64,000 bases of DNA, from assembly GCA_963663165.1 (NCBI GenBank), contig OY760175.1, positions 1,472,001 through 1,536,000 on the forward strand. Direction: 5' to 3'. The notes beneath the pieces are model-generated. The model was not told the origin of the DNA. It saw only the letters and a program-made list of their open reading frames with translations, and searched no databases. The DNA comes from an uncultured Desulfospira sp. GTDB taxonomy: Bacteria; Desulfobacterota; Desulfobacteria; Desulfobacterales; Desulfobacteraceae. A program made the position numbers and the translations under genes. Shown one piece after another: positions 50,186 through 64,000 of this stretch (its first letter is position 1; every line of letters begins with the position of its first letter).

Positions 50186-50410
50186 ATGAGAAGCACAATC
50201 ACAGCACGGGGCCAGACAGTTATCCCGGCTGCCATTAGACAAAAATTTAATATAACCAGTGCGGATCGCTTAGAATGGATCATTGAAAATAATAATTTAC
50301 GGGTAGTGCCGGTTAAACCCAATCCAATTGATGAATTTCGTGGTAAAGGAAAAGGCGGGTCGGCCAAAAGACTTGTGGCCGACCGGAAAAAAGACCGGGG
50401 CCTTGAATGA
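50186..50410 (+). CDS. AbrB/MazE-type antitoxin (VapB)
   Basis: TITARGQTVIPAAIRQKFNI AbrB fold. Confidence 0.85.
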   Translation: MRSTITARGQTVIPAAIRQKFNITSADRLEWIIENNNLRVVPVKPNPIDEFRGKGKGGSAKRLVADRKKDRGLE

Positions 50411-50811
50411 AACGATATGTTTTAGATACATCGGCATTGTTAACTTTGCGCGATGATGAAAATGGTGCCGATATTGTCGCCGACCTGCTTTACGAGGCTC
50501 AAAATCAAAAATGCCGGTGCTACGGCTGTTTTCTTTCCCTTATGGAAATATTATACCGGGTCTGGAAGGATGAAGACGAAATGGCCGGCCGGATAGCTTA
50601 TGAACAATGCCAATCTTTGCCGATTACATGGATCCATGAAACCAAAGACCTGCTCGAACTTGCCGCTAAAATTAAAGCAGAAAACTCGCTTTCCGTTGTT
50701 GATGCCTGGATAGCGGCCGTTTCAATACACAAAGACGCTGTTTTGGTCCATAAAGACCCGGAATTTAAAACCATTTCGTATCCTCAGTTAGAACTTCCGT
50801 ACAAAAAATAG
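50407..50811 (+). CDS. PIN-domain toxin (VapC-like)
   Basis: VLDTSA, E, SVVDAWIAA, VHKDPEF; ATGA overlap with antitoxin. Confidence 0.88.
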   Translation: MKRYVLDTSALLTLRDDENGADIVADLLYEAQNQKCRCYGCFLSLMEILYRVWKDEDEMAGRIAYEQCQSLPITWIHETKDLLELAAKIKAENSLSVVDAWIAAVSIHKDAVLVHKDPEFKTISYPQLELPYKK

Positions 50812-50847: not shown

Positions 50848-51035
50848 TCATATAACGGCCACGGGCCGCCTTGGTTATCCAACCAAGAACCGCCCACAAC
50901 GAATAATGAAAGTCTTCTCAGGACGTTAGTGAGACTTTCATATAACGGCCACGGGCCGCTTTGGTTATCCAACCAAGAGCCGCCCACAACAAATATTGAA
51001 AGTCTTTTCAGGACCTTAGTGAGACTTTCATATAA
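50848..51035. repeat. Tandem 90-bp direct repeat (2 units plus a few bases) with internal hairpins
   Basis: TCATATAACGGCCACGGGCCG... at 50848 and 50938, TCATATAA again at 51028. Confidence 0.9.
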
Positions 51036-52908: not shown

Positions 52909-53541
52909 TTAATTTTTTTTATAGCTATTGGCGATGCCCTTGGTAAGCATTTCAAATATCATTAAAAGCCTCTGGTTGATCTGGCTTTCATCCTCTTCCC
53001 TGAACAGGGAGGCCCAGGCCGCCGAATGGGCGATATGGCTGAACAGCTCGGCCATGTCGGGTGCGGGATAATCCCTGATTTCCCCGGCCTCAATGCCCTG
53101 CTCCAGGATGTCCTGAAACAGGCTGACCATTTTTTCATTGAGCCGGTTGACCCGCTCATTGAGTTTGGGGATGGCCACCGCATCAATATTGGACCGCTCG
53201 GAAATATAGATCTTCACCACCTCCTGGTTGGCCCGGTAAAATTCAGACTGGGCTTTCATGCAGGCAAACAGCTTTGAGGGGGCATCCATATCCTTATTTT
53301 GCTTGATATCAACCATGATATGGCCCAGCTCATGAATCCGCTCAATGACCAGGTCATGGTACATTTCCTTTTTCCCCGGGAAATATTTGTAAATCGTTCC
53401 CAACGGATACTGGGAGGCTTTGGAGATCTGGACCATGGTGGTTCCGTGAAATCCCCTGGCCGCAAAGATCTGGCAGGCAGTTTTTAAAATTTCCTGCCGC
53501 TTTCTTAAATCGTCCCTCTCTTTTCTGGTCACCCGGCCCAT
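52909..53541 (-). CDS. TetR-family transcriptional regulator
   Basis: IFAARGFHGTTM..IS...GTIYKYFPGK HTH. Confidence 0.9.
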   Translation of the reverse strand: MGRVTRKERDDLRKRQEILKTACQIFAARGFHGTTMVQISKASQYPLGTIYKYFPGKKEMYHDLVIERIHELGHIMVDIKQNKDMDAPSKLFACMKAQSEFYRANQEVVKIYISERSNIDAVAIPKLNERVNRLNEKMVSLFQDILEQGIEAGEIRDYPAPDMAELFSHIAHSAAWASLFREEDESQINQRLLMIFEMLTKGIANSYKKN

Positions 53542-53561
53542 GCAAATCCTTGTTTCAAGAT

Positions 53562-53602
53562 TAGAATATATATTCTATAAACAGAAGTGATATTTTTGTC
53601 AA
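53562..53602 (-). promoter_or_regulatory. TetR promoter and operator
   Basis: Perfect palindrome TAGAATATATATTCTA (53562-53577) over the -10; TTGACA on the minus strand at 53602-53597. Confidence 0.65.
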
Positions 53603-53879
53603 GAAAATTTAGGGAATTAGAGCAGAGACTGAAGCAGGGGCAAATCCGGAAGCCACGGGGTTGTTCTTTATAACTGTCCGGCCAATGCTGAGAAGCAAAC
53701 CAAAATCAGGGACCGTAGCGGCTCTATATGCCCCGGTCGGCTGAGCCCCCCGATATGATGAACACCACGGTCATAAAACCCATGAAAGACAAATTCAAAT
53801 CAACACGAAGAAAAAAGCTTCAAAATCTGAGCTGTTTGAACGGGTATAAAGATAACCAACCTTACTGTGCTAAACCGCA

Positions 53880-53975
53880 TTTTTTGGGGTTAAAAAGGGT
53901 CGATTAAGGCCATAAAACCCCTTACTTTTATAACCTTTTCTCTATATTTCAAGCCGCTTAGCGCGGCCCGACCCC
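53880..53975 (-). repeat. Inverted, diverged partial copy (copy 0) of the cassette-array repeat
   Basis: Minus strand reads GGGGTCGGGCCGCGCTAA...GCCTTAATCGACCCTTTTTAACCCCAAAAAA, matching the first ~100 bp of copies 1-4. Confidence 0.8.
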
Positions 53976-54029
53976 CGCCGCCGACCGCCGAAAGCCAAAA
54001 GAAAAAAAGGGAAAAAAACCTCACACCAT

Positions 54030-54069
54030 TGTTACTTTTTTTTCATAATTGTATTACTTTTTTTTCACA
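54030..54069 (+). promoter_or_regulatory. Candidate enhancer sites for a sigma-54 activator (PrsR-type) upstream of the PEP-CTERM gene
   Basis: TGTTAC-T-run-CATA and TGTATTAC-T-run-CACA about 150-190 bp upstream of the sigma-54 box. Confidence 0.5.
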
Positions 54070-54217
54070 ATTTCTCCATATCTTTCGCAATCACAAATAA
54101 AAAATAAAAACTGAATGCTATTCATAATATTTTTTCTAATTTATTTATATTCAAAAACACCTGCCAATAAGCTTTTTCAAAATTATATTTCATTTCTCAT
54201 TCTCAAATTGTTGAAAT

Positions 54218-54233
54218 TGGCACGCCTCTTGCT
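54218..54233 (+). promoter_or_regulatory. Sigma-54 (-24/-12) promoter
   Basis: TGGCACGCCTCTTGCT fits TGGCAC-N5-TTGC. Confidence 0.85.
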
Positions 54234-54442
54234 AACTTTTATATTCAGTGAGTGCCTAAATACACGACCGTATTTTTAGAAAATTGGCATCATGAACGCT
54301 CACTATGTAAAATTTTCAGGGCAATATGCCTATCGCAGTCAAAATACTGCTGGAATCCCAATAGTATGTAGTGCGTTTGGGAAATAAGCCCTCGAGAATC
54401 AAACTTAATTTACGTTATTTTTCAAAAGGAGGAGGTTTGCAC

Positions 54443-55567
54443 ATGAAAAAAGGTTTATTAGTCTTCTTTACTTTAATTTTTTTAAGTTTCAGTTCAGCTT
54501 ACGCCACCACGTACAGCGAGGAATTAGCGGTTGTTAATGCGATAGCTCAGTATCTGGTGGATAATCAAAATAATGACGGTGGATGGGACTGGACACAGGC
54601 TGCTGATGGCTCTGGAGATACGAATTCCGACACTGGATCAACCCAGAACACGGCAGGTGCAACTGCCCGTGGCCTGGTTTCTGCGTATAATCTGACAGGA
54701 AATGTTGACTATCTAAATTCGGCTATTGCAACTGCAAACTACATTATAGAGAACCAGACGACTGTGGCTGGAGCGCATAAAGACTCTTTGTTTCTGTATG
54801 AACTTGATCAAACCCTTACAAATTCGGGACTTGATAATACATATAATGGAACAACTAAAACCTACGGGAAGTATGCCCAAGACGCTGTCTCCGATGCCAT
54901 AACTGCATTCACAACAACTGGAAAATATAAGACTTACTCATGGACAACTTCTGGAAAACTTTCAACTGATATTATCGCTGCTTTTAATGAAATGAGGGGA
55001 ACAGATACTGACACCTACGCCGCATTAACACTCTGGGAAGCAGGCGAGTGGGCACAGGCAATCTATACAATCTCTACTGACACGAATTATAAAACTGAAG
55101 CAATCGAACTTGCCAACACATTATTTGATTTAGCTATAGGAGACGATGGTCTTTTTAACACCACAGATGATGATTATCTTGGAGCATATGCAGATATGTA
55201 TGCGCTTGGGCTTTCAGGACTTCTTGAAGGCATGGCAACAGTAGGCTCCGATTTATCAGACATTGAAGCTCTTGTAGAATACCTTAGTTCATTAGGCACC
55301 TATGGAGATTATCAGGTAGCCGGATATTACGCTCTTGCAATGGAGTTGGCAGGAGAAATTGCTTTGGCTGAGGCTGCTGGTGTTGATATATATGATATCT
55401 ATGAGTCTTATGGATTAAACAATGGTTATAGTGCAATTTACGTGGAATGCCTGGGAGAAGCCCTTCATGGGCTATCAAGCAACATGGTTCCCGAGCCCGC
55501 CACTATGGCCCTTTTCGGACTCGGCCTTTTGGGAATTGCTGGCATTAGCAGAAGAAAAAACAGCTAA
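54443..55567 (+). CDS. PEP-CTERM surface protein
   Basis: Signal peptide MKKGLLVFF...AYA; C-terminal VPEPATMALFGLGLLGIAGISRRK; SD AGGAGGAGG; AT-rich coding sequence. Confidence 0.92.
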   Translation: MKKGLLVFFTLIFLSFSSAYATTYSEELAVVNAIAQYLVDNQNNDGGWDWTQAADGSGDTNSDTGSTQNTAGATARGLVSAYNLTGNVDYLNSAIATANYIIENQTTVAGAHKDSLFLYELDQTLTNSGLDNTYNGTTKTYGKYAQDAVSDAITAFTTTGKYKTYSWTTSGKLSTDIIAAFNEMRGTDTDTYAALTLWEAGEWAQAIYTISTDTNYKTEAIELANTLFDLAIGDDGLFNTTDDDYLGAYADMYALGLSGLLEGMATVGSDLSDIEALVEYLSSLGTYGDYQVAGYYALAMELAGEIALAEAAGVDIYDIYESYGLNNGYSAIYVECLGEALHGLSSNMVPEPATMALFGLGLLGIAGISRRKNS

Positions 55568-55631
55568 TTACGGGAATGAAATGTAAATTGAAATGGGTTT
55601 TGAATTGTTGTTGAAAATTGTGAAATGGGTT

Positions 55632-55865
55632 GAAATGGGGTCGGGCCACGCTAACCTATTTAAAATACAATGGATAGGCTTAATTTTTGACCCTATTTCC
55701 GCCTTAATCAGCCCTTTTTAGACCCAAAAACAAAGGATTAAGGGATCAAAAGCGAGGAACGCAAGTACCCCATACCCCACAGTACCCCGGCCCCCAAATC
55801 AGGGCCCGACAAAAACCAAAAGCCGGTCGAAATTTCCTTTTCGACCGGCTTTTGGTTTAATGCTC
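55632..55865 (+). repeat. Cassette-array repeat copy 1
   Basis: GAAATGGGGTCGGGCCACGCTAA ... TATTTCCGCCTTAATC ... CGGCCC..GGGCC ... hairpin AAAGCCGGTCGAAA..TTTCGACCGGCTTT. Confidence 0.95.
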
Positions 55866-55887
55866 CCCATAGCCTGGTAAACAGTTT

Positions 55888-55938
55888 TTAAGGTTTCAGG
55901 ATCTGCATAATGTTTCTGGCACCATGAAGTACTCTTTG
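55888..55938 (-). pseudogene. 3' remnant of a ParE/RelE-family toxin gene
   Basis: Minus strand translates QRVLHGARNIMQILKP*, resembling the RVLHGARD C-terminal signature of ParE-type toxins; cut off at repeat copy 2. Confidence 0.6.
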
Positions 55939-55939
55939 A

Positions 55940-56164
55940 GAAATGGGGTCGGGCCACGCTAACCTGTTTAAAATACATTAAATAGCCTTAATTTTTGGCC
56001 TTATTTCCGCCTTAATCAGCCCTTTTTAGGCCCAAAAACAAGGGTTAAGGATTTATAACAGGCGAACGTAAAAACCCCATAAACCCCCGGCCCAAATTAG
56101 AGCCGGACAAACCCCAAAGGCCGGTTGAAATTTTCTTTTCGACCGGCCTTTGGGGTTCATGCTC
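55940..56164 (+). repeat. Cassette-array repeat copy 2
   Basis: Same conserved blocks and terminal hairpin as copy 1. Confidence 0.95.
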
Positions 56165-56266
56165 TTTGCCGGTACTTGATTTCGGCCACCACAGCCGGTG
56201 TCCCAGCTATATCAATTGTTTTCATAACCTCTCTGGATAAAAACAATTCAATCCCTATAATTATCG

Positions 56267-56674
56267 TTACGCCTTCCGGGCATCAAGGGTCTTGACGTGG
56301 GGATATGCCAGGATTCTATTATCCGCCGTAATCAGCTGTAAATTATGCTTTCTGGCCGATGCCACAATAATCTGGTCAGCAGGATCTTTGTGAAACTCCC
56401 CGGGAAGGGTGTTGGCCTCAATGGAAATATCAATTGATAATGGTACAATCCTGATCCCTTTAGGATTAGCAGCAGCTGTCAGCCAGTCAGCCAGAGGCAA
56501 AGACAGACACAATTTTCCCAAAGAAACTTTCTTGGCAATTTCCCAAGGGGTAATGGCCGATATGGCGAGGTCTTCCGAGCTGGAACGGCGTAGAACATCG
56601 CTTATGTTTCCGGATAAATCACCCGAGGACTCAGCCATCCAGATCAGGACATGGGTATCAAGTAAATACGTCAT
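56267..56674 (-). CDS. PIN-domain toxin (VapC-like)
   Basis: YLLDTHVLIW, SAITPWEI, HKDPADQII, ITAD. Confidence 0.9.
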   Translation of the reverse strand: MTYLLDTHVLIWMAESSGDLSGNISDVLRRSSSEDLAISAITPWEIAKKVSLGKLCLSLPLADWLTAAANPKGIRIVPLSIDISIEANTLPGEFHKDPADQIIVASARKHNLQLITADNRILAYPHVKTLDARKA

Positions 56675-56909
56675 TTTCGGACGCTTCCCATTCATCGTCC
56701 CCCAGGGGAGAGTCAAAATCTTCTGCTATGTATGTAACGGTACCTGCCAGAGCTCCGAAAATTGGGTTTCCCCTTTTCTTTGGCGCAGGACAGGAAACAA
56801 CAGCCACAACTTTTCCCCGGTTCGTTACATGAATAGGTTGATCCAAATCCGGCAGCTTTCTTAAATATTCTGTGCATTTTGCTTTAAATTCAGTGACGGC
56901 GACCCGCAT
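56658..56909 (-). CDS. Phd/YefM-family antitoxin
   Basis: VTEFKAKC..L....TNRGKVVA; SD GAGGTG before MRVAV. Confidence 0.88.
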   Translation of the reverse strand: MRVAVTEFKAKCTEYLRKLPDLDQPIHVTNRGKVVAVVSCPAPKKRGNPIFGALAGTVTYIAEDFDSPLGDDEWEASENDVFT

Positions 56910-57063
56910 ATCACACCTCATTTTTAAACTATTTAACCATATTATATAGTCCCAAGGTCGATTTATCAAGACAGATTATACAACGGGTCCGTGTCGTTGT
57001 ACCAAACCGCCAATGCGGAAATGGGGTTTGGAAATTTGGAAATGGGGTTTGGAAATGGGGTTG

Positions 57064-57293
57064 GAAATGGGGTCGGGCCACGCTAACGTATTTAAAACAC
57101 AGTAAATAGCCTTAATTTTTGGCTTTATTTCCGCCTTAATCAATCCTTTTTAAGCCCAAAACAGGGATTAAGGGGGGGATGCCCGAACCAACGAGCTCAA
57201 ATACCACATAAAACCCCCGGCCCCCCAAATCAGGGCCGGACAAAAACCAAAGGCCGGTCGAAATTTTTTTTTCGCCCGGCCTTTTGGGTTCAT
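57064..57293 (+). repeat. Cassette-array repeat copy 3
   Basis: Same conserved blocks and terminal hairpin. Confidence 0.95.
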
Positions 57294-57348
57294 ATTTTAA
57301 GTTAGCAAGACTGGAAACCGGGAAATCGCCCCCGGAGTTGTTAACAGA

Positions 57349-57675
57349 TTATTCGCCGTACATGTCGGTTATCAGTTTCCTTAGTTGGGCTGTTTTGGTT
57401 TCAGACAGGCGGTCAATTCTATTTTTTAATCTTTGTTTGCTGATGGTGCGAATTTGATCAACGGCAATTTCAGCATCTTTCTGCGCGCATTTAATCTGTA
57501 ACCGGGTTCTCCATCTTGGATGAAGCTTTGAAGTCAATGGACAGATGACAATGGTTTCAAGGTATTGATTCATTTCATCACGGCTGACAACCACGACCGG
57601 CCGGACCTTTTTGATCTCACGGCCAAGGGTGGGGTCAAGATCGGCAAAATAGATATCATACCGTTTAATATCCAA
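57349..57675 (-). CDS. MazF/PemK-family toxin
   Basis: YFADLDPTLGREIKKVRPVVVVS, CPLTS, DQIRTISKQRL; probable TTG start overlapping the antitoxin (ATG 57684 is an alternative). Confidence 0.9.
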   Translation of the reverse strand: MDIKRYDIYFADLDPTLGREIKKVRPVVVVSRDEMNQYLETIVICPLTSKLHPRWRTRLQIKCAQKDAEIAVDQIRTISKQRLKNRIDRLSETKTAQLRKLITDMYGE

Positions 57676-57940
57676 AATCCTCATCCTCGAGTCCATCCGC
57701 CAGCGTTACATCAAACTCATCCCAATTTTCCTTTTCCCCGGCCATTTCTTTACACGTTTCCTCCCAGGACAGCTTGCCTTCCTCTTCTTTTTTCCGGAGA
57801 AGGAGTCCTTTATCGGTTTCTTCAAGCACCAGCATATTCATGAATCCATACTTTTGAATGATGTCCTTTGGGATACGGATTCCCCTTGAGTTTCCAATGG
57901 GAATGAGTTTAATGGTATTCACCCGCTTTGCTTTTTCCAT
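57665..57940 (-). CDS. AbrB/MazE-family antitoxin
   Basis: KLIPIGNSRGIRIPK. Confidence 0.9.
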   Translation of the reverse strand: MEKAKRVNTIKLIPIGNSRGIRIPKDIIQKYGFMNMLVLEETDKGLLLRKKEEEGKLSWEETCKEMAGEKENWDEFDVTLADGLEDEDFGY

Positions 57941-57967
57941 TTGAGCCCCTCTCTTTGATTGGATAGC

Positions 57968-58014
57968 GTAGTTACAGTAATTACAATAATAATGAAAATC
58001 ACAATCAGTGTCAA
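57968..58014 (-). promoter_or_regulatory. Promoter and operator carried inside the mazEF-like cassette
   Basis: Minus strand TTGACA-17 bp-TATTAT; palindrome GTAGTTACAGTAATTAC at 57968-57984. Confidence 0.65.
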
Positions 58015-58087
58015 TGCGTGGTCACCCAAAGCTTCAAAAGGGTTCAAGGAGTGGTGGCAAAGGCGTGAAATGGAAATGAAATGGTGT

Positions 58088-58306
58088 GAAATGGGGTCGG
58101 GCCACGCTAACCTATTTAAAATACAATAGATAGGCTTAATTTTTGACCCTATTTCCGCCTTAATCAGCCCTTTTCAGGCTCAAAAAACAGGAATTAAGGA
58201 TTAGCAAGCTCAAAGATGCTATAAATTCACCGGCCCCATATTAGGGCCCGACAAAAACCAAAGGCCGGTCGAAATTTTTTTTCGACCGGCCTTTGGGGTT
58301 CATGCT
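58088..58306 (+). repeat. Cassette-array repeat copy 4
   Basis: Same conserved blocks and terminal hairpin. Confidence 0.95.
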
Positions 58307-58370
58307 GTTTGTTTGTTGAGGTACTTTTGAAAAATGAGGTCTGCCTTGCCATGACAGGAACCCGATCAAA

Positions 58371-59531
58371 TTAAAGGCTGCTGCCACATGCCCGCCACCC
58401 CATAACCTGTATCCCCTTTTGCTGATAGGAGTCATCTCCGGCGTAAATCAACGTCGGCGTTTGGGCTTTCTCTTTGGCAAGGGAACACCATTTTTTAAGT
58501 CCGGCAAAAGATTCATGTGTCAAAGTGCGGCCCGACTTAATTTCAACCGGAGTTAAATAGATCCCGTTTTCCATAATAAGATCAACTTCATTGCCGTTGC
58601 TGTCCCGCCAGAAAAAAAAGGCCGGTTTTTCGCCCTGGTTCAGTTTTGATTTTATCATTTCTGAGACAATAAAAGTTTCAAAAATACTGCCCCGCAAGGG
58701 ATGGGTTATCATCTGTTCAGATGTTCTGATCCCTAAAAGCCAGGATACCAGGCCAACATCGTAGAAATAGAGCTTGGGCATTTTTACCAGCCGTTTATTA
58801 AAATTCTCATGATGGGGACGAAGAAGAAAAATGATATAACTTGCCTCAAGGACAGATATCCATGATTTTACAGTATTATGGGTAATCCCGCATTCAGTCG
58901 CCAGAGAAGAAAGGTTTAGAAGCTGCCCTGTCCTGCCGGCGCACAGCCTTACAAAGCGCTGGAATGTTTCCAGATCCTGAATTTTGAGCATTTGCCTGAC
59001 ATCCCGTTCTACATAGGCGGTTACATAAGCGCTGTACCAGGCAGAAGGCTGAAGTCCCCGGTCATAAATCGGTGGATAACAGCCGGTCAGCAGCATGGTA
59101 TCAATACTGCCTGGCAACGCACTCGCAAGGGTAAGTTCCGGTATGGAAAAAGGCAGCAGTTCAACAAAGGCCGTCCGTCCGGCAAGGGATTGTGTAATAC
59201 CGGACATCAGGCCGAACTGCTGAGATCCCGTCAATATAAAAAGCCCCATTCCACCGTTATTATCCACCAGGGTTTGGAGATAGGACAAAATTTGAGGACA
59301 TCGCTGCACTTCATCCAGAACCGCTCCGTTTGGAAACCGGGCAAGAAAAGAACGGGGATCTTCTGTTGCGGCCTGCCTGAGATCCGGCTCTTCAAGAGAT
59401 GCATATGGGTGATTTGAAAAAACCGCCCTGGCAAGGGTAGTCTTACCTGATTGGCGTGGTCCGGTCAGGGTTACAACGGGAAATCCGCCCAGCAGGTTTT
59501 CAAGTATTTCTCTTGCATTTCGATGAATCAT
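58371..59531 (-). CDS. AAA_14 ATPase with DUF4143 domain
   Basis: TGPRQSGKTT, LDEVQ, LTGSQ, YVERDV, PKLYFYDVG, GSIFETF, FFWRDSNGNEVDL, VEIKSG. Confidence 0.9.
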   Translation of the reverse strand: MIHRNAREILENLLGGFPVVTLTGPRQSGKTTLARAVFSNHPYASLEEPDLRQAATEDPRSFLARFPNGAVLDEVQRCPQILSYLQTLVDNNGGMGLFILTGSQQFGLMSGITQSLAGRTAFVELLPFSIPELTLASALPGSIDTMLLTGCYPPIYDRGLQPSAWYSAYVTAYVERDVRQMLKIQDLETFQRFVRLCAGRTGQLLNLSSLATECGITHNTVKSWISVLEASYIIFLLRPHHENFNKRLVKMPKLYFYDVGLVSWLLGIRTSEQMITHPLRGSIFETFIVSEMIKSKLNQGEKPAFFFWRDSNGNEVDLIMENGIYLTPVEIKSGRTLTHESFAGLKKWCSLAKEKAQTPTLIYAGDDSYQQKGIQVMGWRACGSSL

Positions 59532-59593
59532 GGCAAATTTCTATAAACCTCACTCAAAATGAAATATAAATTCATTTCATACATTAAGCCGGA

Positions 59594-59630
59594 TTATGCA
59601 ATTTGTAAATAACTTTTACAAATTGCATAA
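59594..59630. promoter_or_regulatory. Perfect 16-bp-arm palindrome upstream of the DUF4143 ATPase
   Basis: TTATGCAATTTGTAAA-taact-TTTACAAATTGCATAA. Confidence 0.7.
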
Positions 59631-59975
59631 AAGACTCTTGGGGCCTATATATTTTGGGAGTGAAATGTGAAAAAAGCGCCGCCCACCGCGCACACGCATT
59701 CTAAAACAAATCAGAATGTGTTCCGGTCCGTTCAAAAACAACTTTATCCGGTTCAATTATATAGATCAGCAGCCAATCAGATTCAATGTAACATTCCCGG
59801 CACCCCTTCCAATTGCCGATCAGCTTATGATCCCGGTTGAGAATGGTCACAAAAAATCATGGAAAAATTGAAGATAATTTGCAAGATATGTCAGGTTTGA
59901 GGCAGAAGTTCCCCTGTTTATCTCGCAAATAATCGTGAAACTCCTGCCTCCCCACCCAATAACAGGGCAGGAGAT

Positions 59976-60563
59976 ATGCTATCAGAAGTTCTGAAAAACG
60001 AAAGTTTTTTTTGGGATCTATACAAAATAGATCTGGCAACAGCCGAACGTTATAGACAGATGAAGTGCCCCCACTGCCAGGGACCGTTGTATTATGCCAA
60101 TTATCCGCGCAAACCCAGGGGGGAGCCTGAAGGGTTGTCTGAAGAATGTTTTTTACAATTCAGTTTATGTTGCGGAAGGGAAGGCTGTCGACGTCGTTTG
60201 ATCCCGCCAACCTGCCGTTTCCTTGGTAAAAACATTTACTGGTATGCGGCCATTCTGACGATTGTGTCCGACTGGCAGAACCAATCTGTAGGTATCACGA
60301 TGTCCAGGTTTGCTGAAACAATCGGTATCTCCCGCAACACCCTTAGCCGCTGGGTCAGCTTATTCAAAGAAATATTTCCAACAAGCTCTCAATGGAAGAA
60401 AATCCGGGGCCGAGTACCTGCAAGCGTAAAAAATGATCGTCTTCCAGCAAGTTTGGTCAACTTCTATCTGCATCAACAGGCGTCCATCAAAAAAACGTTG
60501 ATCTCCTGTTTGTCATTCTTGTCTCAAGGCAGTGAAATATCACAAAAAATAAGGGCCGGGTAA
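59976..60563 (+). CDS. Transposon accessory protein with Cys motifs and HTH-like segment
   Basis: CPHC, CCGREGCRRR, ISRNTLSRW. Confidence 0.75.
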   Translation: MLSEVLKNESFFWDLYKIDLATAERYRQMKCPHCQGPLYYANYPRKPRGEPEGLSEECFLQFSLCCGREGCRRRLIPPTCRFLGKNIYWYAAILTIVSDWQNQSVGITMSRFAETIGISRNTLSRWVSLFKEIFPTSSQWKKIRGRVPASVKNDRLPASLVNFYLHQQASIKKTLISCLSFLSQGSEISQKIRAG

Positions 60564-60678
60564 TCTCACGCAGAAGATGGGCGTGGCCTTGGGCGCTCAA
60601 CTGTTCTATCAAAGGGGCCGGGATTTTTATCAGCATTTCGCTGAAAATTTTAACTCAAAATTGAAAGGACCCCGGCCT

Positions 60679-62124
60679 ATGAACAGTAAAAACCAAAGTC
60701 CGGTTGATAACTGGGCTTTGTTTCGCTTCTCAGTCGTTGGCGGTTTGCTGGCAAATCCGCCGGCCAAAGGTGAGCTGCGCAAGGAACTGGAAAAGCTTTC
60801 CTATCAGATTTACACCCATCCCATCACGAACGAATCAACGGTATTTCATTTTTCAACTATTGAAAGCTGGTATTACAAGGCAAAAAATGCCCAGGACCCC
60901 ATTATTGCTTTAGGGCGGAAAGTTCGTTCTGACTATGGCGGTTCAATTGTATTCACACCTGAACTGATCCGGATGCTGGGCAGACAATACCGGACTTATC
61001 CGAACTGGAGCTACAAACTGCACGCAGATAATTTCGCAGCAGAACTCCAGGAAAAGGAGGCTTCAGTATCGGTACCATCCTATGCCAGTGTCCGGCGGCG
61101 GATGATCGAAAGGGGGTGGACCAGGAAGCCCTCAGCAAAGAAAAAACAGACAGCGGGTATGAAAATTGCCGCAAAGCGGTTCGAAAGCCATGAAATCCGA
61201 GGATACGAAGCAGAATATGTTCACAGCCTGTGGCATCTGGATTTTCATGAAGGCAGTCTGCGGGTGGTGGATAACAACGGTAACTGGTATACGCCCAAAG
61301 CCTTATGTATTCTTGACGACCATTCCCGCCTGTGCTGCCACATCCAATGGTATTCAGGAGAAACCACCCAGGATTTGATTCATGGATTGACCCAGGCATT
61401 TTTCAAAAGGGGGCTTCCCAGGGCACTGATGACGGACAACGGATCTGCCATGACCTCCCATGAGTTTTGCAACGGTCTTAAAAAAACAGGGATACTTCAT
61501 GAAACGACACTGCCCTACAGCCCTTATCAAAACGGTAAGCAGGAAGCCTTTTGGGGAACCCTTGAAGGCAGATTGATGGCCATGCTGACCCGGGTGGACC
61601 CTCTGACACTGGAATATCTCAATCACAGCAGTCAGGCCTGGGTCGAGATGGAATATAACAAAACCAGGCATAGTGACATCGGCACATCTCCTGTTCAACG
61701 CATGCTTGAAGGCAAAGATGTTTCCCGGCCGGCACCGGATGAAGAGCAACTGAGGTTCGCCTTTACAGTCTGCGAATCCAGAAATCAGCGAAAATCTGAC
61801 GGTACCGTGTCCATCAACGGGGTAAGATTTGAGATCCCTTCCCGGTTTCACCATATCCCTCGGTTACATGTCTGCTTTGCCAATTGGGATAAATCCATGG
61901 CCTGGCTCATGGACCAGAGAACCGGCAAACAGATTGCGCAGATCTACCCCCAGGACAAAATCAAAAATGCTTCAGGAAAACGAAAGATCAAGTCGAGACC
62001 TGAGCATACCATTCTACCGGATGAAACATTGAAAGAATCCGAGCCTGCATTATTAAGAAAACTGATGGCCGAGTATGCCCAAAGCGGCATGCCTCCAGCC
62101 TATCTTCCCAAAGGAGAATCATGA
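60679..62124 (+). CDS. DDE integrase/transposase (rve core, Mu-like C-terminal domain)
   Basis: LWHLDFH, LDDHSR, MTDNGSA, PYSPYQNGKQE, YN...HS, DGTVSINGVRFEIP; start after GAAAGGA. Confidence 0.9.
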   Translation: MNSKNQSPVDNWALFRFSVVGGLLANPPAKGELRKELEKLSYQIYTHPITNESTVFHFSTIESWYYKAKNAQDPIIALGRKVRSDYGGSIVFTPELIRMLGRQYRTYPNWSYKLHADNFAAELQEKEASVSVPSYASVRRRMIERGWTRKPSAKKKQTAGMKIAAKRFESHEIRGYEAEYVHSLWHLDFHEGSLRVVDNNGNWYTPKALCILDDHSRLCCHIQWYSGETTQDLIHGLTQAFFKRGLPRALMTDNGSAMTSHEFCNGLKKTGILHETTLPYSPYQNGKQEAFWGTLEGRLMAMLTRVDPLTLEYLNHSSQAWVEMEYNKTRHSDIGTSPVQRMLEGKDVSRPAPDEEQLRFAFTVCESRNQRKSDGTVSINGVRFEIPSRFHHIPRLHVCFANWDKSMAWLMDQRTGKQIAQIYPQDKIKNASGKRKIKSRPEHTILPDETLKESEPALLRKLMAEYAQSGMPPAYLPKGES

Positions 62125-62948
62125 ACAACAAACAGCTTCTGGCTTATTACGGCCTTAAATGGAACCCTTTTTTTCCTAATATCCCCGTGGAAGCCTTATG
62201 GCATCCGCCATTGATGAACAGTTTTATTTTTCGTCTTGAGAATATGACCCTGAACGGGGGCTTTGCTTTGATCAGCGGGGACCCCGGCCTTGGCAAATCC
62301 AAGGCGTTGCAGATGATTGCCCAAAAGTTCGGTAAACTTGACGAGGTAGTTGTCGGGGTAATGGAACGTCCCCAAAGCAGTGTCGGAGACTTTTACCGGG
62401 AAATGGGAGTTTTGTTTGGTGTCAATTTGAGCCCTGCCAACCGGTACGGCGGGTTCAAGGATCTTCGGGAGCGCTGGAAAAGTCATGTAAAAACCACCTT
62501 GTTCCGGCCCATCCTGCTCATAGATGAGGCCCAGGAGATGCTGACCGGATGCTTAAATGAACTGCGTTTGTTGAACAGCGCGGACTTTGACTCCCAAAAC
62601 CTGTTGACCACCGTGATTTGCGGCGATGACCGGCTCCCGGAACGGTTCAGATCAAGATCCCTGGTATCGCTGGGAAGCCGGATGCAGTTCCGGCTGACGC
62701 TGCTTCCCTATGTCCGGGATGACCTGCTGGATTACATGGATCACAGCCTGAACCAGGCCGGCGCCCCGCACTTAATGACGAAAACTCTGATCAGGACCCT
62801 TGCAGACCATTGCGCCGGCAACCTGCGGGTTCTTAACAATATGGCCGCAGACCTGCTGACTGCGGGGATTGAAAAAGAACTCAATCAATTGGACGAAAAG
62901 CTTTTTATGGAAGTCTATTCCAGACAGCCGCCCAATAAAAAATCATAG
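62121..62948 (+). CDS. ExeA/TnsC-like AAA+ ATPase
   Basis: YGLKWNPF, GDPGLGKS Walker A, LLIDEAQ Walker B, GNLRVLNN; ATGA overlap with the transposase. Confidence 0.88.
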   Translation: MNNKQLLAYYGLKWNPFFPNIPVEALWHPPLMNSFIFRLENMTLNGGFALISGDPGLGKSKALQMIAQKFGKLDEVVVGVMERPQSSVGDFYREMGVLFGVNLSPANRYGGFKDLRERWKSHVKTTLFRPILLIDEAQEMLTGCLNELRLLNSADFDSQNLLTTVICGDDRLPERFRSRSLVSLGSRMQFRLTLLPYVRDDLLDYMDHSLNQAGAPHLMTKTLIRTLADHCAGNLRVLNNMAADLLTAGIEKELNQLDEKLFMEVYSRQPPNKKS

Positions 62949-62957
62949 GAGAACAAT

Positions 62958-63140
62958 ATGGGTATTTATGATGATCCGGACATGAAACTGGAAGAAATCA
63001 CACAGGAATTGGAACATTTTATCCTGGATATGGTCCTTGCCGGACTTGAAAGCTTGAATATGGAATATCGGGCCTTCAGGCGATTCCAGAAACAAAGGCT
63101 CACGGAAAAGAACCGTCATAAAGAACACGAGCCGTTTTGA
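62958..63140 (+). CDS. Small hypothetical protein
   Basis: 60-aa ORF with AGGAG SD. Confidence 0.5.
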   Translation: MGIYDDPDMKLEEITQELEHFILDMVLAGLESLNMEYRAFRRFQKQRLTEKNRHKEHEPF

Positions 63141-63177
63141 ACGTACGCCCGGACTCCAAAGGTCCGGGCCTGCCTCA

Positions 63178-63966
63178 ATGGAAAAAATACTTTGGAAAAT
63201 CGGCAATTATTTTAAGCACCGCTTCAGCCTGGCAGTTCTTGATGAAATTAAGGGCCGGTGGCCCGTTCTCCCCTCTTGTAAAAACATCCCTTATCTTAAA
63301 GCTGAAAATGCCGGAGGAAGGCACATCCTGATCAGACCTGATCCTGTTATTCAGCCTTATTATTTTCTTGCCGACGATTTAAACATTGACCTGCTTATCC
63401 GGCATCATCAATCCATATCAAACCGCTTTAAACCAGGCAGGATGGTTATAGAAACATCTCCCGGCAATTATCAAATTTGGATTCACAGTGACCGTCCGTT
63501 AAGCCTTCCCGAAAAAAAGTATTGGTTGGAAAACATGCACAGTGATCCCGGCGCCGACCCGAAAAACAGGTGGGGCAGATGCCCCGGGTTCAGGAACAGA
63601 AAAGCAAAACACAGAACGCCTTCAGGACAATACCCTTTGGCAAAGCTATTATGGGTGGACTGGAAATGCCAGGCTATTGTCCCTGAAATAGAATTATCCT
63701 CCCAACCTCAAGAAGTCTTTTCCCATCAACCCCGGGGGGGAGTGTGCCATAACGGTAATATTTCCCGCTCCCTCTATGATAAGGGTGACGAATCTGCCAC
63801 TGATTTTGCATATGCTCTGGCCCTCTATAGAAGAGGTTTCTCACGAATGGAAATTTACAATCGCATTATCAATGAAAGGCAGGATTGGATTAATCATGCG
63901 GGTGAACGAAAAAAAACACAGTATCTGATCAGGACATTACAGAAAGCTGAAAAAATTATCAGTTAA
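63178..63966 (+). CDS. RepB-type DNA primase domain protein
   Basis: LADDL, IETSPGNYQIW, DPGA, RCPGFRNRK and C-terminal DESATDFAYA...Y..RT..KA, as in RSF1010 RepB'-like primases. Confidence 0.78.
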   Translation: MEKILWKIGNYFKHRFSLAVLDEIKGRWPVLPSCKNIPYLKAENAGGRHILIRPDPVIQPYYFLADDLNIDLLIRHHQSISNRFKPGRMVIETSPGNYQIWIHSDRPLSLPEKKYWLENMHSDPGADPKNRWGRCPGFRNRKAKHRTPSGQYPLAKLLWVDWKCQAIVPEIELSSQPQEVFSHQPRGGVCHNGNISRSLYDKGDESATDFAYALALYRRGFSRMEIYNRIINERQDWINHAGERKKTQYLIRTLQKAEKIIS

Positions 63967-64000
63967 AATCGGGCTCTCTTGGCCTCCGGGAAAGCCCTTA

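Follow-up and report, generated by a model that had tools for sequence, protein, structure and literature searches.

Repeats and toxin–antitoxin genes in a polar array of an uncultured Desulfospira sp., and a candidate TIRtron-type HUH transposase

A 64,000-nucleotide stretch of the genome of an uncultured Desulfospira sp. (contig OY760175.1, positions 1,472,001 to 1,536,000; the window) contains four copies of a noncoding repeat that alternate with toxin–antitoxin (TA) and defence genes. The locus raises the question of what this repeat is, which enzyme might act on it and whether the genes move with it. An earlier note on this DNA had proposed a gene-capture platform outside the integrons, with the repeat as its recombination site and an enzyme supplied in trans. 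Our analysis indicates that the repeats and the intervening genes are apparently a gene-stockpiling array, resembling an integron and built from other parts. The four copies are in direct orientation (starts at 55632, 55940, 57064 and 58088, as first described), are 217–231 bp long with pairwise identities of 78–82%, and each opens with GAAAT followed by GGGGTCGGGCCACGCTAA. All four contain TATTTCCGCCTTAATC, a small CGGCCC/GGGCC stem and a hairpin of about 46 bp (arms of 20–21 nt), and match a model built from these same copies with an nhmmer E value of about 1e-75. A different minus-strand cargo follows each copy, again as first described: a ParE remnant, a Phd–PIN pair, a MazE–PemK pair and an AAA_14/DUF4143 ATPase.

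The repeat core and the transposase gene it flanks

Each window repeat has three parts: 5 nt of flank, the 112-bp core and a tail, specific to this array, that ends in a terminator-like hairpin. The full tail with its hairpin occurs only in the window array and is absent from the genome-wide repeat family. The core is dispersed: an iterated profile found 57 matches in the source genome (G000) that include or nearly include the end (55–57 end-bearing copies), which our own clustering grouped into 29 loci. The end box has the consensus GGGGTCGG[GA]CC, with GGGGTCTG a common variant in genome G005. After it come phased A/T tracts and then a dyad box, which begins 66 nt from the core end in 145 of 162 scorable sites. 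Beyond the end, the flank is variable except for a pyrimidine at −1 (82–85%).

Folding the core consensus gave two pairs only, with no covariation and hence no consensus secondary structure, and an Rfam scan returned five chance-level matches, none close to the gathering score. In the inner dyad, positions 1/38, 4/35, 5/34 and 6/33 covary above shuffles and the spacer arms pair in 30–48%; because this covariation is only partial, the dyad is read as a predicted binding site rather than a hairpin. Its rigid spacing without a fold suggests that the core may be bound by protein as duplex DNA. Behind the tail hairpin the cargo strand carries a T run, and the hairpins of copies 2 and 4 were classed as terminator-like. 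The idea that this hairpin is an HUH substrate was not sustained: it is array-specific, lies at the end opposite to the junction cluster described below and reads as an intrinsic terminator.

The core also forms the inverted ends of a gene for a 265-aa Y1 HUH transposase, intact at G000:4910635-4911432, 3.4 Mb from the window array, with flanking cores at 4910612(+) and 4911546(−). A second copy (804.7–806.1 kb), split by an IS200 element, lies between cores at 804634(+) and 807113(−), and core-flanked transposase genes were found in G001 (intact) and G002 (three copies within 11 kb). The start codon comes after the left core; at its 3' end, the gene meets or overlaps the right core. Among 32 aligned sequences, the HxH motif (H60, H62) is kept, Y121 is invariant and Y-x3-N-M is present in all 32. 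The protein matches only PF01797 in Pfam. Its structural model has a pLDDT (predicted local distance difference test score) of 77 with a low-confidence C-terminus, and the best Foldseek match is TnpA-REP (4ER8, E 5.2e-6). A candidate has thus been found for the trans-acting enzyme of HUH/RAYT-like type that the earlier note expected elsewhere in the genome; none of the genome's 14 Y1 matches, which are of several types, falls within the window.

In 151 genomes of the order, the site occurs in 89 and the transposase gene (E ≤ 1e-25) in 42, all of them within the site-bearing 89; the 62 genomes without the site all lack this transposase. Since the gene is flanked by the sites, this co-occurrence is in part circular. 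A fixed-pattern scan across GTDB returned at least 138 sites. Among the 138 matches listed, the transposase gene lies on the inner side of 43 sites and the outer side of 2, and the hosts are mostly Desulfobacterota, with some Nitrospirota, Gammaproteobacteria, Betaproteobacteria and others. Across the phylum, 22 of 121 genomes carry the site, and the strict site pattern had no exact match among viral contigs.

TIRtrons (TIRYT), reported in 2013, consist of a Y1 tyrosine transposase gene between long inverted repeats that are not repetitive extragenic palindromes (REPs), according to the accessible parts of the relevant papers (PMC3733652; PMC6006769). The present element resembles them in having a Y1 gene flanked by long, GGGG-starting inverted repeats that occur genome-wide as singles, dimers and groups. 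It falls within the broad TIRtron definition, with a flanked gene, HUH and tyrosine in a Y1 fold, and a dispersed repeat family. What the earlier note had taken for an uncharted element is a variant of these terminal repeats, with many copies scattered through the genome. A GGGG[AT][CG]A[CG] (GGGGWSAS) end is shared by only some terminal inverted repeats (TIRs) in the accessible text of PMC3733652; unlike that subgroup, the repeat here has GGGGTCGG or GGGGTCTG as its end box. The element also differs from TnpA-Y1 subclass 2.1, as far as PMC6006769 is accessible, in having Y-x3-N-M in place of Y-x3-N-P and in giving no Pfam match to a helix-turn-helix (HTH) tail (Bac_DnaA_C, HTH_23 or HTH_28), a comparison made with Pfam rather than with that paper's own profiles. 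Because the Y-x3-NP and HTH marks are lacking, we do not file it in subclass 2.1.

Junctions, cargo and variation

Polar arrays of these sites are not confined to the window. Among neighbouring site pairs no more than 7 kb apart in the source genome, 21 of 26 are direct. The G005 array has 44 sites in 47 kb, 43 of them on one strand, with mostly opposite-strand cargo that includes MNT-HepT/HEPN, PIN, Phd, lysozyme and sugar-nucleotide enzymes and the transposase itself. In G081, two-core elements of 245–274 bp alternate with TA, GmrSD and polysaccharide genes, and the transposase gene is one of the units. The G005 array (L077-L079) also holds repeated ORFs (open reading frames) of about 200–330 aa with no Pfam match, Rpn-like by eye, and other unannotated cargo, which are candidates for new defence genes.

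Duplicated modules in G005 locate the junctions. In both copies, 18 of 39 left ends fall at −10 to 0 from GGGG; of the right ends, 10 of 39 stop shortly ahead of the next site in a single copy and none of 39 does so in both. Altogether, 28 of 78 module ends touch such a window of positions, against 2.5 expected by chance. The site subtype stays with the inner-side cargo while the upstream context changes. An outer flank of at least 4 nt is shared by 45% of 65 near-identical site pairs in different contexts, compared with 2% of 2266 dissimilar pairs, and the GAAAT of the window is such a carried flank.

Duplications of at least 7 nt across the outer junction (hereafter stutters) were present at 69 of 177 sites, against 2.5% and 3.3% in controls. 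Most (53/69) take in 5–8 flank bases, and the part within the core ranges from 0 to 30 nt. The pattern was replicated in an independent, pattern-found set (48 of 135, against 2.4% in shuffled sequence and 8 of 133 at the inner position). Two 97%-identical copies of one module bear different stutters; the process is therefore recurrent. At some junctions the repeat end is joined to unrelated sequence, and for this reason an attC-like, site-by-site exchange is not established; the claim that the repeat is the recombination site stands for the incoming end only. Four other class-2 Y1 genes of the source genome (G000:4833887-4834864, 4888279-4889253, 3023.6-3024.3 kb and 4421595-4422263) each have their own GGGG-type inverted ends, with similar junction stutters, and ends of different families join into hybrid mini-elements (e.g., 1225445-1225563).

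Listing the genes beside all copies in the source genome bore out the TA and defence bias seen in the window. A TA, defence, Rhs or immunity family (E ≤ 1e-5) is present at 22 of the 29 site loci, or 17 of 29 without loci that have Rhs or immunity families only, compared with 2 of 20 control intergenic sites (3 of 20 if a DruA-family match that we read as a transposase is counted). The scan covered 169 of the 215 ORFs within 1.5 kb of sites, those dropped being mostly short, and all 92 ORFs at 20 of 40 randomly drawn intergenic sites. At 4 of about 68 PEP-CTERM-like motif matches, a site end lies within 110 nt of the stop codon, and a PEP-CTERM gene between outward-running sites, as in the window, was also found at 807 kb and 1378 kb of G000. 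Between sister species, a PEP-CTERM gene and a dockerin-domain gene that are orthologous and lie between two sites (L019:5674-7076 and L083:8899-10325) differ over most of their sequence; the dockerin gene keeps its N-terminus. Sites in direct orientation border Rhs toxin-immunity modules at L021, L026, L027, L032 and L033, which suggests that they play a role in the turnover of these modules.

Cargo order and content differ between strains, so order is not fixed. Units bounded by sites and present in only one of G000 and G001 are an AAA_14 unit (1379–1380 kb), a MazF-type unit (806–807 kb) and an AbiE pair (809 kb). Other samples were compared through metagenome contigs from 4 of 7 listed runs in two studies, at 90% likeness, a level at which some contigs may be related loci. 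In run X3, ParD is followed by 98 letters and then the MazEF unit, an order unlike that of G000, and the left anchor is joined to −6 of copy 2. Minority contigs of run X1 (depth 10 versus 210) have the PEP-CTERM stop joined to −5 of copy 2, with −7 to +15 duplicated. In run X6, copy 1 is joined to ParE within homologous tails, and the site of the transposon downstream is empty. Among the 15 joints listed, of 19 in all, none closes a unit on itself; the joints are from contigs, which drop rare forms.

A proposed mechanism and its rivals

We consider it probable that a TIRtron-type transposase moves site-plus-cargo units in trans into polar arrays. Cleavage by HUH enzymes produces a 5'-phosphotyrosine together with a 3'-OH, which may prime synthesis or attack another linkage (accessible text of PMC8266576). 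On this model, the enzyme would bind both the end box and the dyad at its rigid spacing, nick about 5–8 nt outside GGGG and become linked to the site-bearing strand, and host polymerase would extend the free 3' end. In an aborted round, re-ligation after a short extension would leave a stutter with a fixed flank part and a variable core part. In a productive round, the flank, the site and the inner-side cargo would be displaced and joined at another nicked site or to nearby DNA; joining at a nicked resident site would give the direct tandem order. Repeated rounds could then build head-to-tail arrays in which modules with their own promoters are duplicated, truncated and reordered. The TA pairs would probably stabilise such arrays, and the tail hairpin may insulate cargo transcription. 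Polarity, carried flanks and module duplication are all accounted for by the nick model, as is the truncation of cargo, of which the ParE remnant is an example.

Several observations weigh against this proposal, whose HUH chemistry is, we stress, wholly inferred for the array. Flank sharing is bimodal, with 19 of the 65 near-identical site pairs sharing 0 nt, so a single nick position cannot account for everything. The AbiE gain or loss maps to the inner end of a site; this inner-end join and the zero-flank class are outside what the model explains. The shared tail and terminator ahead of different cargos need a second, unexplained type of junction. The X6 join in homologous tails fits RecA recombination. 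At E ≤ 1e-25, 47 of the 89 site-bearing genomes have no match to this transposase, and the acting enzyme is not pinned down because the window cores are just 55–62% identical to the sites that flank the transposase. The cargo bias could arise from a shared tolerance of accessory islands, and the counts above are of sites, which are related within an array, rather than of independent events. G001 carries the window array unchanged in a 22.5-kb tract of 99.6–99.8% identity and, because the tract is near-identical, is uninformative on order at this locus.

Some of these points are expected if the repeat (core plus tail, or two cores in the manner of a miniature inverted-repeat transposable element, MITE) is a non-autonomous element copied locally by the same HUH enzyme into existing TA and defence islands, with passive cargo whose order changes through RecA recombination between repeats and deletions beside active ends. 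We regard this as possible, if unlikely. Two-core MITE-like forms of 234–274 bp do occur in five genomes (G000, G001, G002, G055 and G081), the tail of the window units is common whatever the cargo, and the X6 join and the repeat ends joined to unrelated sequence are in keeping with such hopping, as is the fact that repeats of this kind were already known as singles, dimers and groups (Di Nocera 2013, PMC3733652, accessible text). However, the duplicated modules of G005 start 4–10 nt beyond the repeat, in sequence that gives RecA no homology to act on, and the site subtype stays with the inner-side cargo even where the upstream context differs. The strand polarity noted above (43/44 in G005, 21/26 pairs in G000) is unexpected for random hopping, and the transposase gene is itself a unit in the G005 and G081 arrays.

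A different enzyme might rearrange sites that derive from TIRtron ends: another class-2 Y1 protein, the IS200 TnpA, which is present in three copies, or a tyrosine recombinase, for instance the IntI of this genome. The variety of Y1 genes, an IntI match above cut-off at 4194663 and the site-bearing genomes that lack this transposase all speak for it. Yet each of the other class-2 Y1 genes examined is flanked by its own, different type of end or palindrome, the distance from IntI is 2.66 Mb to the array and about 0.7 Mb to the nearest site, and the site-negative genomes all lack this transposase; we think this reading quite improbable. That the repeats are ends of Tn3-family or other DDE MITEs moved by a DDE transposase, on the strength of a GGGG start and an ACGCTAA motif that we take to resemble Tn3-family inverted repeats, can be dismissed as highly improbable: none of 29 inverted pairs has a target duplication of at least 4 nt, the site is 112 bp rather than about 38 bp, and the Tn3 transposase (PF01526) is absent from all 5 genomes tested, so a Tn3-family MITE (TIME/IMU), with its 5-bp target duplication, was rejected.

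A wider claim goes beyond the movement of units by a TIRtron-type transposase, and we put it forward tentatively, as one that may well hold: TIRtron-type HUH transposases would drive a widespread, integrase-free gene capture by nick-primed, single-strand copy-and-join, building polar arrays of up to 44 sites in 47 kb from TA, defence, Rhs and surface-polysaccharide modules, with insertion beside resident sites leaving diagnostic stutters. If so, defence genes of Desulfobacterota and other phyla would be gathered in these arrays as a catalogue yet to be mined. Which role non-REP 'domesticated' Y1 HUH transposases play is still a question for the field, and the literature as far as accessible reports no substrate or activity for the TIR-associated group. 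The present finding supplies a defined site and predicts where it would be cut; it also gives a scar by which genomes can be scored, and it points to a candidate function, the collecting and reshuffling of TA and defence modules, so that the question of role is testable with the existing cleavage and strand-transfer assay. Should cargo move with the site, 89 of the 151 genomes sampled in the order would hold an integron-like platform of different chemistry, and new defence genes could be sought with the site profile.

Relation to known systems and layout of the window

Sedentary chromosomal integrons and clusters of attC sites lacking integron-integrases (CALINs) are polar repeat-plus-cargo arrays, rich in TA and defence genes and variable between strains, whose enzyme may be remote, and the array resembles them in each of these respects. 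It differs in having no linked IntI, in cargo with its own promoters and in units that are often truncated; its junctions lie outside the repeat and leave stutters, and the proposed chemistry is that of HUH enzymes (5'-phosphotyrosine) rather than of tyrosine recombinases. The sole IntI above cut-off, a genuine integron integrase, is at G000:4194663-4195604 (L124), and none of 97 tyrosine-recombinase-like matches in the genome falls within the window. An integron was accordingly rejected for lack of a linked IntI, in line with the earlier note. No RYYYAAC..GTTRRRY pair was found in 53001-60000; the same expression also found none in the 10 kb around the genome's IntI and so had no positive control.

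The pdif modules of Acinetobacter are likewise non-integron TA and immunity modules that use a host-enzyme site with the enzyme in trans, and their mobility is inferred from genomes (bioRxiv 2020.10.08.331108, accessible part). In pdif modules, however, the sites are short, plasmid-borne, inverted XerC/XerD pairs with a 6-bp spacer. The present site fits neither that length nor that orientation: it measures 112 bp, is mostly in direct orientation, lies on the chromosome and is linked to an HUH gene. REPtrons share the enzyme fold (4ER8), and their cleavage falls outside the recognised structure (Corneloup 2021, PMC8266576, accessible text). In contrast, the core here has neither a GTAG (or CGTC) tag nor a short conserved hairpin, and that text does not describe REPs with genes. 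A REP or REPtron was rejected, since the 112-bp profile has no GTAG/CGTC tag and no conserved stem, and IS200/IS605 likewise, since the core has no conserved fold and the outer flank, variable except for the −1 pyrimidine, offers no fixed tetra- or pentanucleotide target. Group 1 RAYTs have the highest duplication rate of the RAYT family (PMC5581495, accessible part). The nearest cargo-related precedent is the prochlorosin proposal, in which subclass-2.1-type transposases and fragments lie among variable-gene clusters (Laurenceau et al., bioRxiv 2020.03.09.984088). Unlike the present case, where site and junctions are mapped, it had no inverted repeats, and the causal claim was withdrawn by its authors (bioRxiv 2020.03.09.984088). 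Cargo, polar arrays, junction mapping and stutters are found here and are not described for TIRtrons in the accessible parts of PMC3733652 and PMC6006769. Our literature search turned up just two works that name TIRYT or TIRtrons and no account of TIR cargo arrays, with most subscription journals and supplements (including Di Nocera Fig. 9 and additional files) outside it. The site and the enzyme class were thus already known, and the array behaviour with mapped junctions is apparently undescribed.

The array is bigger than first described, with an inverted core, a PEP-CTERM gene, an extension of unit 4 and copies 5 and 6. At its left, the inverted core (53864..53975, minus strand) has its GGGG end at 53975, faces the PEP-CTERM gene and is 63% identical to the core of copy 1. 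A sigma-54 −24/−12 promoter match (54218..54232, plus strand), whose function we infer from the motif, lies upstream of this 374-aa (from ATG) gene (54443..55567, plus strand; PF07589, E 1.3e-7), the anchor between outward-running repeats. A junction stutter of iterated, GAAAT-type short duplications, identified from the sequence and by the stutter test, occupies 55568..55636 on the plus strand and ends in the 5-nt flank of copy 1.

All four copies are on the plus strand and their cargo is on the minus strand. Copy 1 has its core at 55637..55748 (end box GGGGTCGGGCC, phased A/T tracts, dyad box at 55703-55742) and its tail, with the small stem and a terminator-like hairpin at 55813-55858, at 55749..55862. 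The ParE C-terminal remnant that follows (55888..55938) retains 16 codons and is cut off at the flank of copy 2; over 130 nt the stretch is 88% identical to the tail of an intact ParDE unit 9 kb downstream, the homologous ParE unit being at G000:1536.9-1537.2 kb. Copy 2 (55940..56161) has its flank at 55940-55944 and core at 55945-56056, then its tail and hairpin. Unit 2 (56267..56969) encodes a PIN toxin (56267-56674) and a Phd antitoxin (56658-56906, a match below the Pfam cut-off). A long stutter of 8–13-nt units (57015..57068, plus strand) overlaps the first core bases of copy 3 (57064..57293, core 57069-57180). Unit 3 (57349..58014) encodes a PemK/MazF toxin (57349-57696) and a MazE-like antitoxin (57665-57940). 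The MazEF-like pair had been singled out for its own promoter; a sigma-70 match of 11/12 is indeed present (58014-57986), but it is not special to this pair, as Phd–PIN also has an 11/12 match to a sigma-70 promoter (56969-56941). Copy 4 (58088..58304, core 58093-58204) is preceded by a stutter and followed by the AAA_14 + DUF4143 ATPase (58371..59531), a candidate defence gene (PADLOC PDC-S01).

Unit 4 also includes a RelB antitoxin (PF04221) and a YafQ-like toxin gene split by a transposon: its 3' part, called from a translation by eye, is at 59701..59837 on the minus strand, and RelB and the 5' part lie beyond the window, as do copies 5 and 6, just outside it and flanking the ParDE pair. 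The 4,206-bp DDE transposon (rve, AAA_22 and RepB primase; 59838..64000 within the window, plus strand) has TG..CA ends and a 5-bp target duplication and is a later insertion, outside the array system. It runs to G000:1536043 and has about 10 copies of 97–100% identity; its RepB DNA-primase-domain passenger is unusual. At L084:6400-7920, L021:3345-5081 and L035:3470-5085, other DDE insertion sequences have inserted either at a site's inner end or immediately behind it. The tract shared with G001 extends from window position 53502 to G000:1548028, matches L072/L073 between flanks that are 91–95% identical, and is either a recent interspecies transfer or an assembly chimera. To the left of the array, an AbrB/MazE-type antitoxin and PIN toxin pair (50186-50811) has no repeat site near it. 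Beside it, at 50848-51027, a REP-like repeat of 90 nt is present twice; it has about 245 blast matches in the genome, and a related copy lies inside copy 5 of the array, directly after the core.

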